Origin: Octopus sinensis
Lineage: Eukaryota
NCBI RefSeq assembly: GCF_006345805.1
Contig: NC_043005.1
Location: 68,820,001 to 68,884,000 of the forward strand
Direction of reading: 5' to 3'
Length of the DNA: 64,000 nt
In this document: positions 7,140-57,165 of the stretch, piece after piece
Numbering within the stretch: position 1 is the first letter of the stretch
Layout: each line of letters begins with the position of its first letter
Notes under the pieces: generated by a model
Told to the model about the DNA's origin: nothing
Database searches by the model: none
Seen by the model: only the letters and a program-made list of their open reading frames with translations
Position numbers and translations under genes: made by a program

Positions 7140-8170
7140 AAGGATCGGTTAAAATGTTTATAGGTTGCCCAATAGAATATTTACCAAATAAGATTTATAC
7201 TTCAACATAGTCCCGCTTGCGGTCCACACACTTCATCCACCTCTGTTTTAACGCTTGCATCCCATTGGTGAAGAAGCTTTCACGCCGTTGGTCAAGAAAA
7301 GTCATCAATAGCAGATATGACATCCTCATCACTGCTTGACTGGTTCCCTGCAAATTGTTTTAGTTTTTTCATCGTAACGAAGAGATGATAGGCAGATTGA
7401 AACAATTCAGAAGAGTAGGGAGGTTGATTAACCATTTCAGAGCCACAATCACGCACAACAGCTATTGAAAGCAAAGACGTCTGTGCTGGAATATTTTCCT
7501 GATGAAATAAGATCATTTTTGTCAGTTTTCCTGGGCGTTTTGTCTTGATAACCATTTGTAAACGTCTCAGCAAGTTGTCAGTGTACCCTGCATTGATAGT
7601 GTGGCCGATTTGGAGATAGGCAACAAACACGATGCCATCTGCATCCTCCAAAATATCTACAGATGAAATGACCTTGACCTTTCTGGAACTGGTGACGATA
7701 GGTGTTCCCACTTCTTGGAGTGTCTTTTTGTCTGGCTTAAAGTGATGGACTTAACAATCATCCTGGTTTAGGAAACGATTACAGTCTCCCGCGAGATGGT
7801 CAGTCTGATGTTCTTCCGATCAAGCAGCCACCAAGCAGAAATCTTCGTAAGGCCAAGCTCTATGTGCAGTATTGTCTACTCTCTCAAGTCATATGCTAAT
7901 AGGATTGTGTATTTGATGGATAGACAATCGAGTATCGTCTATCTGCATGTGATGAACGCGGTTAACGTACTCCTCGGTTGGCATTTGCAGGACACCCATA
8001 CATTGGGTCATCTTCAAGACTCTCCCTTCCACTCCTAGATTAAGCTGCCCACTTTTGTACTGTTGATGAAGCTGGAGTGACATTATCTAATGTAACAACC
8101 ATGCTAGCAACAATTTCATTAGGAGTAAACCCTTTCTCTGCATGAAACCAATTCTTTTTCATTCTCAAGA
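7140..8170 (-). mobile_element. Mariner transposon relic (transposase pseudogene)
   Basis: ORF 7292-7711 reads DADGIVFVAYLQIGHTIN...IKTKRPGKLTKMILFHQENIPA...QPPYSSELFQSAYHLF, i.e. degenerate HDNAPAH and HPPYSPDLAPSDYHLF. N-terminal HTH remnant in 7889-8083. Confidence 0.9.
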
Positions 8171-16991: not shown

Positions 16992-17208
16992 AAAATATTT
17001 TTTTTCTCCTCTCCTTGTGCTGTATGAACATCTAATGTGGTTTTATAGTCAGATTTTGGCTACTATTTTCAGCATGGCGGTATCTCGTAGATTCCCTAAA
17101 TTAAAATTTTAATAATAATTATTACCTTTGAAGGTTTTTGTTTCCATGCTGGCCACTGATAAGATCGTTATTTAATTTAAATTAGCGATCTTGTCCTTAT
17201 ATATATAT

Positions 17209-17347
17209 ATTAATTTATTATATAGAAGGAGCTTCTACAGGACTAGAACTGTTTCATTCAAGAGAAATCTTCAGGAGCTTCCTGAAGATTTCTCTTGAAT
17301 GAAACAGTTCTAGTCCTGTAGAAGCTCCTTCTATATAATAAATTAAT
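17209..17347. repeat. Perfect palindrome, 68-bp arms with 3-nt spacer (inverted pLTR-like)
   Basis: 17209-17276 is the reverse complement of 17280-17347; the spacer is GCT. Part of a ~190-bp insert between (TA)n tracts. Confidence 0.95.
17273..17329 (+). ncRNA. Type I hammerhead ribozyme
   Basis: Stem I AGGAGCTTC/GAAGCTCCT (9 bp), core CTGAAGA, stem II TTC-tctt-GAA, GAAA, stem III ACAG-ttctagtc-CTGT, cleavage triplet GUA. Confidence 0.85.
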
Positions 17348-17399
17348 TTTACTCTACTATGTATGAGTACCTTATTTACTTGTTTAACCCCGATAGGTA

Positions 17400-17443
<44 letters not shown>

Positions 17444-19863
17444 CATAGTCTTTCGGCGTGTTATAAACTTTTCCTGCAAATCATTCAAATACCAGTTTTG
17501 GATTCTTGTTTACTCCTAGTTATAACCGTTCGGTCTTATGTTAAACACGCACATATACCTAATCTGAAGATATTCCATACTGAGACATTATGAAATATTA
17601 AGACATTCAATATGAAATATATCATCAATAATATAATTACGAAGCAGATTATTTCGCTTTAGAATCTGTCGTTACGAATATCGACTTAATGTTAGAAATT
17701 GGCAACTACAATAACGATTGTTATTAGAAAGCTCAACTGAAGAAATAGGAGGCAAATAATTGATTCGATTATTTTGGCAACGTGCTAGAAATATATATTG
17801 TAACTATTTGAAATTAACTGATGTTTATGCTTTTAGGTATATAGTGAATTACTAAATGTCTTACGGGAATTATCCTAAGTGAAGTGAATTTTGGAATTTT
17901 GCATCTTATTTAGCGTAAAGAACTGCAAAACTGCTAGATTTCCTAGCGACCAGGAAGAAATGCTAGACACTTTCAAGAATTAATTTCCCAGAAAATTAAA
18001 TTTTCTTGGCTTATAGAAAATTCGATCTTCGTTACGAGTCGAGAAGCCACTAAGGATATGCTGCAGTCTTCTTACATTTCATCAGGGAAACAAAATGTTT
18101 GACGTCTGGTGTTACTTTTACTCTTCAAAGATCCATTTCTCATGTTACATTACTATCTACGTTAAAAGAAAAGAACGTAACAACTTTCCCTTAATCTAAT
18201 AAAAACTATAATGATTTTAGTGAGAAAATCTTACTTAATATATTATTTGTATGATGTTACGTTGAGCATTACAGAAGAGATGTCAACCCTTGGCAAACAA
18301 TAAAAGGAAAGAAAATAAACAGAAATCTCAGTATATATCTATCAAAGTCCGATAGGGCAACTATAAAATTGAGAATTTTAAGTACACATAAAGATACGTT
18401 AAACATATTTTGAATGTGATTTTGCTCTAAACTTGGCGTCAGAAACCGAAAGGGAATTTTGAGTAGAATATATATCATATCAAATTAAATTAACGTACTT
18501 CCTCTCATGTAATGATTATAAGAAACGCATACATTACTTTCATTGTAGTACATAAGTTCCCCAGTGAACGCTTGTATACAAAAGGTTAAAACATAACAAA
18601 TCGAATCAAAATATAGACCGGTTTGTTTGCAAAACTAAACTGGAAAATGCAACTCTACAATGTTGTTGCCTATTAAAATATTTGACGCTATCTTCTTTGG
18701 ACTATCGATTCGACTTGGTTATTGGAGAGTTCTCAAATAGATCAATTAATCAATGACGAAATCAACCATCTCTTATAAAAGTGTCTGTATCAATAATGTA
18801 ATTTGTTTGGAGTGCTGGTCTCATGCACATAAACACACGCATGCTCTAACACCCACAGACGCCCTCACAGACACCGTCAAACTTTTACAAACACAGCGTT
18901 CATTGTTATCAGATGTATTGGCATAACACATTATTATTAAACTGCTCAGTGTTATCTGCCAAACAAGGTGATCATGATAGAAACAGCAGGCAATTTCCCA
19001 AAAGTGAGACCCTTAGTCTTTTAACAAAGATTAAATATTGGCTTATGTAATGATGCATAGTGCATTCACTGAAACACGTAGTGAACAATATAATCTTCGA
19101 GAAGAAGGGGTTGGTCACACCAGGGATTTCTTTGGAAAATATTTCCTTTTGTTGGATGCTGAACTGTAGAACATGCGCAGTATATTTAATGCATGACAAA
19201 ATCTCTACCAACATTTCCTCGTCGGATTTAAAATATATAATGTTACAGTGTTAGGTGAAGATATTAGATTGTACTATGAGACAATTCCTGGTAACTGCTC
19301 CAGATCTGTGCGTTCTGAGTTCATAGTAACACACCACATGATGTAACAATCCTGCTTGGTTCCTGGTTGCATTTAACGTTAGTGATGTTTGCAAACACTT
19401 GACTAAAGTCAACATTTGAGGACAATCTCTTACGGAGGTCCTACAGAAAACGGCAAAAGAAGAGCTAAGATTTTCTCTGAAATAAAAATAAATGGACAAA
19501 CAATAGTGTTATAATACTGGCAGTTCAAAACCTGAATGACTGAGGCGGTCGCTCAGGTATAAGAATATCCTACTGAAACACGGGTCCCAATCTTTCTTTG
19601 TGTCTCTTCTTAGAAATCATTTTGTATAGTTTTATCCCAGAGATCACCATTCCATCTTATTTGTAGTTTTTGTTCCAGTTGCCACTAAGCAAATGTGCCG
19701 TGCTTTCTTCTCTAGAATTGTAAAGAATTTCAATAAATCAAAATTTTATCTTGCATGGCTTTTAATATAAATATATTCGTCTCTGTACTTCAAATATTAT
19801 ACCATTTGCCGATTTCGGCTAAATATCTAAGCCAATTTTCGTTTTATTTATATGTAGAGAGTA

Positions 19864-23149: not shown

Positions 23150-24170
23150 CTTTCAAAGTACGAAACTCGCATCTCCTTCAAAAGAGAATCTTTTGGTTTC
23201 GCGACCCTTGTTGTAGCGCCCCGGCCACTTTGTGAAGGCTTCACAGAAATACTCTAAAATAAATGTACCAGTTCACAGCTTCTATAGCTTCTCAAAACGA
23301 TTGCCTCTGTGGTTCTCCTTCAGCTTGGGCAACAACCAAAATTCACCCGTGACATGATATGGACTGAAAGGATGGTTAAGAACAGTTCTGATGCCCATCT
23401 CTGTCACGTTTTCGTATACTAGGATGGAATTGTAAACATTTGCATTGCCTGATGCAGGTGCTCTGGACTTTTGCTTCGAGGTCTCTTCTTGAATTTCCCC
23501 CACACCACCACGAATTTCAATTAGTTGACAATCTGGCCAGAAGAAAGTAAGTGGATGTACACAAAAAAGAGAATCATCATGAACGTAGCGGTGGAGTTAC
23601 TTTGCCAGGCTCTTTTTGGTGCGTGGGAGCTAGGGTGCCCCCACTGTGTAGCATGGCTTTTGGTCTCTGGATCATAAAAAACTTGTTCCAGGTTTCGTCT
23701 TATATTACCAGAGATTCTTGGATTGCAGGTAATGAGCCTAGCCATCTCTCTACTACCACCAACTCGTTTTTCATTTTGTTTGCTATCAGCGACATGGGAA
23801 GAAACTTTGAACAAATGATTTGCATGTTCAGATCTTGAATTATTCCGCGTACAAATACTACATGAATTTCCAAAGTAGTCTTTATAGACACATTTCCATG
23901 TTGTCTTTATACAATGTTACGATATTCATTCAGGAAATATAATTTTTCTCAACCAGCTCTGATATTCGAATGTGCTACTCTCTCATTCAAGTTAGTCTAT
24001 AAGCAGTCTGGACTATTTCATAAGAATTTCTATAGCGCTTTGCGCAGTTTAACACCAAACTTTAACTTCCAGATTGTTTTTACGTTCAGACAGCATTTGG
24101 CACAATAATTAGCTGTGACAAGCACTAGTGTTGAAAGAGCAGTTACTGCTGTCTATTTCAATTTCAAATA
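23150..24170 (-). mobile_element. Mariner transposon relic
   Basis: YDPETKSHATQW (cf. YDPETKxQSxQW) and HPFSPYHVTGEFWLLPKLKENHRGNRF (cf. HPPYSPDLAPCDFWLFPKLK). Multiple frameshifts. Confidence 0.85.
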
Positions 24171-44301: not shown

Positions 44302-45134
44302 ACATTAGGGTGAATTGAAGAAATGGAGCTGAACGCAGATTGAACAGAATCGTTTTTATTTCATTCTACACGTGTTTCGAAAGGCACAAATTACCAAAAT
44401 CCGATTGAATAATGGGACCATTGTGTCTTTCTCTTCAGGAAGAAAAAAGGAAATCCGTTGGAAAAACAAAAACATAACAGAGGCGGAGCAAAAAACAAAT
44501 CGAACTGTGCTCCCAAGAGCCATGGCGAACTGTTTATCAGTGTATGTTGAGAACCGGTGGCTGAAGAATTCAACGGGTCAGGCATCGGTCAATCATGTGG
44601 GTGAGGGTGTATAGATGTTCTTTGTGACGGAGAATAAAGTTCTGACTATTTAAAGAATATTGGATGTTTTATAAGTGGCGAGAAAAACTACTTAGAGACG
44701 TGTGTGTGTGTATACTGTTCTATATATGTGTGTGTTGGCGTAGGGGTAGAAAACATTTTTTGTGTACGTGTGTGCGTTTGATCGTTCGGCTGTCAGTGGC
44801 TACTGCCGTGATAACCGTTGGGTGGCAGAAAGAAAAAAAAAAAATATATATATATATATATATTATGTTTTATGTGTGTGTGTGTTCATCTAAGCCTACC
44901 TTGTCAAGGAAACCCCCCGCTGTGAAAAAACCAAGCCCCGTTTGTCTTACAGGAGTAATTCCCCTTGCAGTGGTCAATCGTAGATATCTTAAAGGCTATT
45001 TCTAGTGGGCTTTTCAAATCAAATCAGTTCTGGGAAGTTTGAACATTTTATAGTTTTGTAGTAGTGGGTGAGGAGGAAGTGAGACAGAGAAAAAATGTGT
45101 GTATGTGTGTGTGTGTGTGTGTGTGTATGTGGTT

Positions 45135-45575
45135 GTGCGTGCGTGTGTGTGTGTGTGTGTGCGCGTTTATATCTGAGAGTGAAGAAGTGTTATTTCCGTT
45201 GGTCTACTGGACCGCCTGTGGTTTTATAAGAACTTTGGCCGTCCATTTCGATGTCACTGAGTGTGTGTTGTGCGTAGGTTGGCCTGGCAAATGTCATTTG
45301 GGTTCACACTTTCTATGATCATTCTGTGGAGTGTGTGTGTGTGTGTGTGTGGTCCTTGTGTCCCTGTGTGTTTTCGTGTTGCGTGCGTGTGTGTGTGTGT
45401 GTGTGCGCGTTTATATCTGAGAGTGAAGAAGTGTTATTTCCGTTGGTCTACTGGACCGCCTGTGGTTTTATAAGAACTTTGGCCGTCCATTTCGATGTCA
45501 CTGAGTGTGTGTTGTGCGTAGGTTGGCCTGGCAAATGTCATTTGGGTTCACACTTTCTATGATCATTTGTGGAGG
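45135..45575. repeat. Tandem duplication, period 244 bp, ~165-bp identical cores between (GT)n tracts
   Basis: GCGCGTTTATATCTGAGAGTG...CTATGATCATT at 45161 and 45405. Confidence 0.95.
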
Positions 45576-45648
45576 TTGTGTTGTGTGTGTGTGTGTGTCT
45601 CTGTGTGTCCCTGTTGTTTTCGTGTGCGTGCGTGTGGTGTGTGTGTGT

Positions 45649-45680
<32 letters not shown>

Positions 45681-53997: not shown

Positions 53998-54042
53998 CTC
54001 TGATGAAGGGGTATCCCTAATATCCCAGAAACAGCTATAAGA
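53998..54042 (+). ncRNA. Degenerate minimal hammerhead in a probable solo pLTR (~53865-54115)
   Basis: CT-CTGATGA-a-GGGGTA-tccctaa-TATCCC-a-GAAA-CAGCTA-TA-AG. Stem III is one change from the palindrome ACAGCTGT; stem I is only ~2 bp. Confidence 0.6.
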
Positions 54043-55050: not shown

Positions 55051-56561
55051 AGCCCTACCCACCGTCTAAGTAATTTTATTGACATTGTTTTGAAACCACT
55101 ATGTACTTACATACCCAGTTTCATCAGGGATGACATCGACTTCCTGTCCCGTCTTCCCCAAAACAACAGAAACAAATTCAGTTTTACTAAGTTTTGATGT
55201 GGTAAGCCTCTACACCAATATTCCAATAGGAATAAAGGCGATTAAATACTGGTTAGAAAAACATAGAGAAGTGATTCCCAGCAGATTCACAGTGCCATTT
55301 ATATTAGACACAGTCAAACTTATTCTAGAAAACAATACATTCTTCTTCAATGGAAAGAATTACATCCAAATTAGAGGCACGGCGATGGGAACGAGGTTTG
55401 CTCCCGTTTACGACAACTCTGTAATTGGATACTTAGAACAACAACTCTACCAAGAGGTGGAGGTAAACTATGGCACTGGATTTAGAAAGTATATTGAAAA
55501 GGCATGGAAGAGATACCTTGACGACTGCTTCATAATCTGGACAGAATCTCTAAATACTCTGGAAGAGTTCAATATCCTCCTGAACAACCTACACCCATCT
55601 CTCCAATTACAAAGGAGATAAGTAGTACCAAATTACCATTCCTAGATATAATGGTAATTAAAAAAGACACACCATCACCACAGATATATACTATAAACAC
55701 ACAGACACACATCAATACCTAAATTTTAAGTCGTGCCATCCACCACATGCAAAACGCAACATCCCATACTGCCTAGCCAGAAGAATTTGTACCATTATAG
55801 ATGATGCAAATATCAGGAACAAACGCCTAATAGAACTAAGAGAATTTTTGCTCAAACAAAAATACCCATCTCTACTTATAGAAAATGGCATACAGCGGGC
55901 TATAAAAATACCCATACAACAACTTAGGTAGGACAACCCAAGGAAGAGGAAAACAAGAACAAGTCATACCATTCATAGTGGCACACAACCCATGTCACCA
56001 GAATATTTTCAACATTGCAAAAGCAAACCTACCAATCATTGCCCAAAGTAATGAATTAAAAGGCATAATCACGGATCGAGCTATGGTGCTTAGTAAAAGA
56101 CAGCCTAAAAACTTGAAAAAATTACTAACAAAGGCAAAATTTGACCTTAGCAACAAAGACCAAACATTCACTGTATCTAAATGCAATGATAATCGATGTG
56201 ACACATGCCAATTCATACATACCGACCAATATATAAAGACAAAAACCGGGAAAATATTCACAAACGCGAATATGAACTGCAAAGGCAGAAATTTAATTTA
56301 CTGCATCAAATGCCCAAATTGTGAAGAAATATATGTAGGTCAGACAGGAAACGCACTATCAGAACGCTCACGTGTATCCGGCAACAGATTAGAGACCCAG
56401 AGGTCCGTCAGATACCTTTGAGTAACCACCTAGCAACATGTGGCCGGAAAATGTATATAATATTTCCGTTCTACAAATTACACAGCCCAAGTGAAATCGA
56501 GAGGAGAATCAGAGAAAAGAATTTTATTGATAAATTCGAACCCAAGCTAAATAAGCAATAG
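55051..56561 (+). pseudogene. Penelope-like retroelement RT + GIY-YIG, 5'-truncated and frameshifted
   Basis: RT motifs SFDVVSLYTNIP, GTAMGTRFAP and RYLDDCF; Cys linker KCNDNRCDTC; endonuclease NLIYCIKCPNCEEIYVGQTG. Ends ..FEPKLNKQ*. Confidence 0.95.
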
Positions 56562-57165
56562 TAATAATACTTAGATAGCAGGAAAATTATCTTATTTAGG
56601 GTTAAAAGTTCTATTGCCACCACCATCACCACTAGCAACAATAATTAAGGTGCTGACAATGATGATGCTGGCAATTGAAATATAAAAATATAAAAATCTC
56701 TGACAAAGGCAATTTACACCATTTCTAAAAATAGCCCAACAATTGCTGCTTCGGCCAGGGTCAAGGTACAGGACTCTTGACATGTCCAACAAAGCGTGAC
56801 GCCTAAACCAGTCAGCTCAACCAACCAATCAGCTTAAGTAATTGAGTGATGCTACACACTGATTGGTCACTGATTGATTACAAAACCTAGCATTTGGAGC
56901 CTACCCAACTGTATTTAAAGCACATATTCAATCATCTCGCTACAGTCAAAAATTGTGAAGCATGACTGTCACCACTACTACATGAACCTGAAGATTGCAG
57001 AATTTAATGCATGAAAGTACTAGTTCAATGAGAATGAACATTTAACATTCTATTATTTTATTTTATTTTATTATATTATCTTATATCATTATCAGATTGT
57101 AAATAAAACGTGAAAATCAGACAAGGTCGGACTTCCTTTTATTAATATATTCTTCTATACACAAT
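56562..57165 (+). mobile_element. 3' pseudo-LTR of the Penelope-like element
   Basis: Follows the endonuclease stop. Contains CCAAT/ATTGG boxes, TATTTAAA, a hammerhead and AATAAA (~57102). Confidence 0.7.
56981..57030 (+). ncRNA. Minimal type I hammerhead ribozyme of the PLE
   Basis: CATGAAC-CTGAAGA-t-TGCA-gaatttaa-TGCA-t-GAAA-GTAC-TA-GTTC(a)ATG, with palindromic stem III AGTACT. Confidence 0.85.

Follow-up and report, generated by a model that had tools for sequence, protein, structure and literature searches.

How did a perfect palindrome that carries a hammerhead ribozyme motif come to lie within a (TA)n repeat, as it does in the 64,000-nt stretch of DNA analyzed here (hereafter, the window)? 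The 68-bp perfect arms named in the original prediction are real: the arms at 17209-17276 and 17280-17347 are 68 nt each, 100% complementary, and separated by a spacer of 3 nt. Folded as a hairpin, the palindrome has a free energy of -112.6 kcal/mol (z -25.6), and none of 200 shuffles was as good. The placement of the ~190-bp unit in (TA)n was also correct, with a short left remnant (17198-17210, read from the sequence and overlapping the arm end) and a right target at 17402-17447. Element coordinates below count from 0, which is assigned to the base that opens hammerhead stem I (window position 17276). The plus strand carries a tailed arm that covers element positions 0 to about +119 (17276-17393) and is 97% identical to the full-length copy L208, while the minus strand carries a tail-less arm (17209-17276), an inverted copy of +4 to +71 that is identical to L208 at 68/68 positions. 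The arms meet at a head-to-head junction (17273-17283), which was delimited using a tally of palindrome centers and the genome listing. The one-sided tail (17348-17401, plus strand) was recognized in an alignment of 30 copies; in the window copy, its last ~20 nt are rearranged relative to the usual end at +138.

A hammerhead had been proposed on both strands. On the plus strand, positions 17276-17326 read as a Hydra-type type I hammerhead, predicted from its core and stems and from comparison with File S2 of Craig et al. 2021 (PMC8557442); its core is at 17282-17288, three stems are present, and cleavage is predicted after A17320. The core and the 4-bp stem III (17304-17307 with 17316-17319, loop of 8 nt) are as originally described, but of the 9 bp described for stem I only 6 are native, as judged from the native copy L208, because the outer three pairs are supplied by the mirror arm, and stem II is weak, with 3 bp behind a U.U pair and a pair probability of 0.05-0.07. 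The isolated plus-strand 58-mer is no more stable than shuffles (z -1.65); with the hammerhead alone, stems I and III form, and the ribozyme fold lies at -15.2 versus a minimum of -16.4. The second core, on the minus strand (17226-17283), does not fare as described: instead of one bulge, its stem I requires two single bulges, which leave 2 contiguous pairs, and its folding prediction does not yield a hammerhead (z 0.37). Rfam returned no hammerhead match over 17268-17400 at E<=10, and its miRNA-model matches to the hairpin were below threshold and reflect the palindrome. The plus-strand motif is indeed unlike the minimal type of Penelope-like elements (PLEs), but it is not new, as Hydra-clade hammerheads with a 4-bp stem III are tabulated in the same File S2. 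The Hydra hammerheads listed there commonly have a 4-bp stem III with U on both sides of stem II, and three have the ACAG/CTGT stem of the window copy and a cut after A (GTA). On this sequence comparison, the 4-bp stem III of the window hammerhead can be considered typical of the Hydra clade. The suggested competition between hairpin and ribozyme was borne out by folding, in which the hairpin is predicted to out-compete the ribozyme fold; read-through RNA of the stub would, on these predictions, form the hairpin and not the ribozyme. For an RNA beginning at position 0, a small hairpin is predicted over the ribozyme fold.

Other copies, which had been named as something to look for, are abundant in the window's own genome (2.72 Gb, with the window on contig C9). 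A similarity search yielded 916 first-look candidates; 40 of these were scored, and apart from the window copy itself the remaining 39 were 96-98% identical; the 30 best copies all have (TA)n on both flanks. Exact patterns, whose counts are lower bounds, matched at least 1,716 tail-bearing ends (control 0), at least 2,800 cores of the main subfamily, and at least 587 or 589 head-to-head cores within 16 nt, depending on the pattern (control 1 or 0), corresponding to ~590 near-identical palindromes. There is no tandem array at the window site, and copies of the family occur as dispersed head-to-head pairs. Perfect arms could also be produced by a fold-back artefact of assembly or sequencing, or belong to a MITE of a DNA transposon, as palindromic MITEs exist (PMC5625713), but we give these explanations virtually no chance. 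About 588 copies have varied centers, a one-sided tail, and unique flanks; they correspond to the terminus of an element that encodes an RT, and contigs of run X15 show inverted-arm sequence ahead of position 0. For the family, the ~588 palindromes with many centers and a tail on one arm only refute the artefact. The MITE reading, which calls for the terminal inverted repeats of a transposase element, fails because the inverted arms are on one side, the tail is on one arm only, and the sequence comes from an RT element. The pairs also differ from retrozymes, which are head-to-tail tandem units each with a hammerhead, in being head-to-head.

The origin of these sequences is seen in copies that lack a mirror arm beside the hammerhead, which share a common upstream UTR running to an RT-endonuclease ORF. 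Among 20 ORF loci picked for long open frames (L113/L111 included), 17 have the hammerhead and tail downstream of a Hydra-type RT-endonuclease ORF, with the hammerhead mostly 2.6-4.3 kb past the stop. For the N-terminal part of the ORF, 30 loci were fetched, 26 examined, and 25 anchored; in 13 of the 25, a hammerhead (at -450 to -458) and then a tail (ending at -317 to -325) lie directly upstream of the ORF start, and the tail is found in 16/25. The hammerhead and tail before and after the ORF are a direct tandem pLTR. The suggestion of a head-to-head pLTR remnant is thus supported and tied to a parent, and the linked PLE ORF that had been sought was found, together with its tandem pLTR, elsewhere in the genome. 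The parent ATG lies at +183, and the ORF has Atlas matches to HTH_animal, RVT_1, and GIY-YIG clusters (0.95-0.99); a Pfam scan of the ORF gave no valid match. Its protein (translated from L113) has DKT, a CxCx5C linker, no CCHH, and CxxC plus CxH around the endonuclease E/N, and L206 has RWR where the Hydra clade has an N-terminal RWK. The 3' UTR (L117) is about 3 kb, mostly TA/TG microsatellite, and unusually long for a Hydra element. Judged by motif and hammerhead comparison with the described Hydra clade, this is a new Hydra family, and the window palindrome is the shortest product of this young Hydra-clade element. The window unit is likely a single insertion of the retroelement; the TATA box is absent from the stub, which is probably inert.

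Further PLE remnants lie in the window. At 55094-56560 (plus strand) there is a decayed Neptune-like PLE with RT, zinc-finger linker, and GIY-YIG, followed at about 56984-57023 (plus strand) by its own minimal hammerhead, in which loop III is palindromic and the U.U pair recurs; this ORF is ruled out as the parent by its different hammerhead. At 1078-1575 there is a remnant Hydra-type GIY-YIG endonuclease of another family, read on the minus strand at 1078-1440 and likewise ruled out, as it is 39-42% identical to the parent's at the protein level. The window also contains a hammerhead-like core motif (54000-54040, plus strand), a 244-bp tandem duplication beside an A-rich tract (45134-45651, 96% identical), and frames at 7292-7750 and 23282-23916 (both minus strand) that resemble remnants of mariner-type transposases. 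Elsewhere in the genome, a looser pattern, with the window family excluded, gave 844 matches versus 146 in the control. These include a second Hydra family with 3,015 cores, which is ORF-linked and forms the same mini-palindromes; its 5' limit is less sharp, which counts against the model favored below. Another match, L265, corresponds by eye to the hammerhead that follows a third Hydra ORF in L071 (about 1850-1920); in the L071 copy one core letter of the hammerhead is changed. A different Hydra family at about 40% identity has numerous open frames of considerable length, the longest 766 aa, and has likely been recently active.

The way in which the arms are paired is highly regular. In 146 head-to-head pairs from all loci, a partly selected sample, a tail is present on one arm and absent from the other in 141 (93/95 short and 48/51 long pairs). 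Tail-less arms stop mostly at +68 to +72, and tail arms end at +138 in 67/70. At four subfamily sites the two arms of short pairs agree in 85/85, 89/89, 91/93, and 90/92 cases, and both arms therefore come from one template; in L232 and L242 the arms differ, so one unchanged template is not behind every pair. For a less biased view we used 70 tail arms of the first 81 listed on contig C1, leaving out 11 previously sampled loci. Here, 39 tail arms start at or before -40, none at -39 to -2, 23 at -1 to +6, 7 at +7 to +30, and 1 at +45. The 46 pairs classed in this genome-order sample comprise 27 short-short, 19 long-long, and no mixed pairs, where 48% mixed would be expected if the arms were independent. 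Over all loci there are 3 mixed and 3 intermediate among 144 pairs, and one mixed pair, L043, belongs in the genome-order stretch but is among the 11 left out. Neither arm is consistently the longer; in each class, about half of the pairs have the greater length on the tail-less side, with a difference of up to about 3 kb. Unequal arms could also arise through later central deletions.

Several observations bear on what the limit at position 0 represents. A TATAAAT motif starts 28-29 nt upstream of 0 in 133/136 copies. Among arms that reach 0, there are 13 whose preceding base cannot be attributed to the partner arm, and 11/13 have G at this place; the native base there in long copies is T in 127/129 (not deduplicated), giving a binomial P of about 1e-5 for the extra G. 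A contig of run X15 has +61 joined to 0 through a single G. Reverse transcriptases also add untemplated bases without a cap, and the G therefore shows the template end more firmly than it shows a cap (n=13). At L164 (C1 near 61,056,650), the first bases of the element occur three times as short repeats in the center, an extra G accompanying every one, as if the RT had restarted at the RNA end. Extra G at the 5' junctions of full-length L1 insertions is described as reflecting the cap (PMC11702581); Penelope of D. virilis, on the other hand, is described as having a TATA-less internal promoter, which counts against a TATA-driven start (PMC2377424). Contigs of runs that we guessed to be RNA cover the hammerhead, the tail, and the ORF start. 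At L117 the contig-run depth dips just upstream of 0, but we set this aside because L117 has indels there. Starts at 0 also speak to the state of the template. All 189 tail arms include 62 that start at 0 and 1 at the predicted cut site, +45, and cleaved RNA was rejected as the main template on these counts. Locus L186 (C1 near 95,108,955) is a solo copy that starts exactly at +45, directly against (TA)n and lacking a mirror arm; with 1 such start in 189, this may be chance.

Position 0 might instead be a processing site or a strong RT stop, that is, a splice acceptor or a stall at the ribozyme fold, which we regard as very improbable. The native bases before +2 form an AG acceptor after a pyrimidine run, and in D. 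virilis the 5' end of helix I is reported to coincide with an intron end (PMC4209133). Arms that include the AG itself, and that have no common 5' exon, speak against a splice acceptor, as does, weakly, the lack of a listed splice joint in the contigs of the runs guessed to be RNA; if the RT stalled independently on the two arms, mixed pairs would be frequent. In the literature that we searched, which misses most subscription papers and bioRxiv supplements, we found no report of a 5' limit at the hammerhead edge with an extra G, or of a short-short/long-long rule, in PLEs.

The centers of the palindromes provide a further record of how the arms were joined. A tally of 76 centers gave 23 distinct strings, with two types making up 52: in 24 the center is the 4-nt self-complementary start of stem I, and in 28 it is the window type, of 2 nt. 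The window junction is therefore one of the two commonest, and its sequence follows from a 2-nt overlap when one additional G precedes position 0. The window-type center occurs in both orientations (22 and 6, a count subject to selection bias). The predominance of two types would also fit a scenario in which mini-palindromes behave as non-autonomous elements, each copied in full from the read-through hairpin RNA of a few master palindromes. The A-to-G changes at L242 described below would fit it as well, since the 7 in one arm and the 1 in the other share a strand, the pattern expected from an edited hairpin RNA. We nevertheless consider this scenario improbable, as there are 21 other center types, the same common centers recur in different subfamilies, variants are symmetric in both arms with no shared one-arm variants, the palindromes form a continuum up to multi-kb arms, and there are 0 copies with the tested pair of opposite-strand changes.

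A different possibility keeps the same element and RNA end and has a single cDNA fold back at the self-complementary short end of stem I and self-prime the second arm, with later central deletions making the arms unequal. It accounts directly for the identity of the arms and the scarcity of mixed pairs, the window center becomes a 2-bp stem with a 3-nt loop once the extra base is counted, and self-priming has already been proposed for PLE palindromes (PMC3846280). We think it rather unlikely, since it predicts that the tailed arm is never shorter, whereas about half of the pairs in each class have the shorter arm on the tailed side. It is also at odds with the window-type center being found in both orientations, selection-biased as that count is, and with the fixed end of the tail-less arm, which is what a second priming site would give. 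Because either arm can be longer, we prefer two primings to the fold-back of one cDNA.

We therefore favor a model, with a probability of roughly 0.6, in which the RT-endonuclease cut (TA)n and one RNA was copied twice, from two fixed starts to its likely capped 5' end, after which the copies were joined head to head. The parent ORF, the tandem pLTR, the (TA)n target, and the tail on one arm were observed directly, as were the arm ends at +68 to +72 and +138, the sharp limit at 0, and the shared variants. Transcription would start at 0, beneath the TATAAAT box 28-29 nt upstream, which is also where a tandem pLTR would start the ORF mRNA; the mirror point of the palindrome thus likely marks the capped start of the element RNA, and the extra G would be the copied cap. 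Each target end would prime one cDNA on the same RNA, one at +138 and the other at about +70. Priming in the 5' pLTR would let the cDNAs run off at the cap after 139 and 70 nt and give a mini-palindrome, and priming in the 3' pLTR would give the long pairs. The cDNA ends would then anneal by 2-4 nt, using either the 4-nt start of stem I or 2 nt that include the cap-derived base. The template RNA would be uncleaved by the hammerhead, as 62 of 189 starts at 0 and 1 at the cut suggest.

The window hairpin had been put forward as a possible substrate of ADAR or Dicer, but the sole sign of editing comes from a different palindrome of the genome. L242 (L242:921-1170, C1 near 76,372,050) carries a tail on each arm, and one of the arms has seven A-to-G changes (six found by script, one by eye), a count reached by 1 of 359 arms and having a chance of about 1e-12 at the background rate; the partner arm has one A-to-G change on the same strand. 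L242 is the only genomic match to the doubly changed A-to-G pattern, and the corresponding opposite-strand double change has 0 genomic matches. There is no general A-to-G excess, with 17 A>G versus 21 T>C in the 359 arms and 6 of the 17 coming from L242. From its sequence, L242 likely preserves an ADAR-edited RNA template, a rare event. A broader reading of the family, to which we give slightly less than even odds, is that the mini-palindromes record Penelope integration itself, with a capped start at stem I, the ribozyme as a possible decapping switch, dual reverse transcription, a head-to-head join, a supply of dsRNA from several Hydra families, and at least one ADAR-edited template. If true, a ribozyme placed on the cap end could act as such a switch, and the genome would hold a genome-wide supply of perfect dsRNA hairpins; should the host be a cephalopod with heavy RNA editing, the palindromes would matter as a source of perfect short hairpins. 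The window locus by itself is ordinary repeat debris, and the interest lies in the mechanistic pattern across copies. Taken as a population, the copies bear on how inverted head-to-head insertions with a tail on one side arise in PLEs, and the model of two primings on one capped RNA predicts a start site for the Hydra element, a clade for which we found no mapped transcript in the literature searched.

Head-to-head pLTRs with a palindromic junction and a one-sided tail have already been described (PMC3846280, PMC8557442), and the closest known systems are the Hydra-clade PLEs, including Hydra-1_Obim (PMC8557442). As described there, they share the C-terminal GIY-YIG without CCHH, DKT, CxCx5C, the (TA)n target, the 4-bp stem III, a U before and after stem II, an inverted 5'-truncated partner, and the one-sided tail. 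The hammerhead and protein of the window family differ from those of Hydra-1_Obim when compared by eye. Its 3' UTR is mostly 2.6-4.3 kb and microsatellite-rich, while the described Hydra elements are < about 3 kb overall; loop III has 8 nt versus 1-3 in the listed Hydra hammerheads, RWR replaces RWK, and the tail is about 70 nt rather than 30-40 (PMC8557442). Small size, a lack of coding capacity, a type I hammerhead, and derivation from PLE pLTRs are shared with non-LTR retrozymes, which are described as head-to-tail tandem arrays, unlike the dispersed head-to-head pairs of the window family (10.64898/2026.07.22.740005; PMC7229834).

With regard to mechanism, the EN+ Penelope elements of Adineta vaga likewise have head-to-head pLTRs, a junction palindrome, a tail at one end, and TATA and Inr-like motifs in the pLTR, and were explained by self-priming on an antisense template (PMC3846280). 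Here, the arm lengths and the extra G speak instead for a pair of cDNAs templated by sense RNA, both terminating at the same RNA 5' end. A PLE protein, PAc Poseidon, has been found in vitro to extend both target strands, with RT starts at two internal sites that define the tail and bracket it (Frangieh et al. 2024, PMC11167929). The template in that system is uncleaved RNA, as the arm starts suggest here. No strand difference in start site is described for PAc Poseidon, whereas here there is one arm per site in 141/146 pairs, and head-to-head joining is not addressed in the accessible text of that study. Twin priming in L1 offers a parallel from another class of element, as both target ends prime on one RNA, the join uses microhomology, and an extra G is found at the full-length 5' end (PMC11702581). 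The difference is that L1 twin priming inverts the 5' part with little overlap, while in the elements described here both cDNAs would copy the same stretch, and the product is a palindrome.
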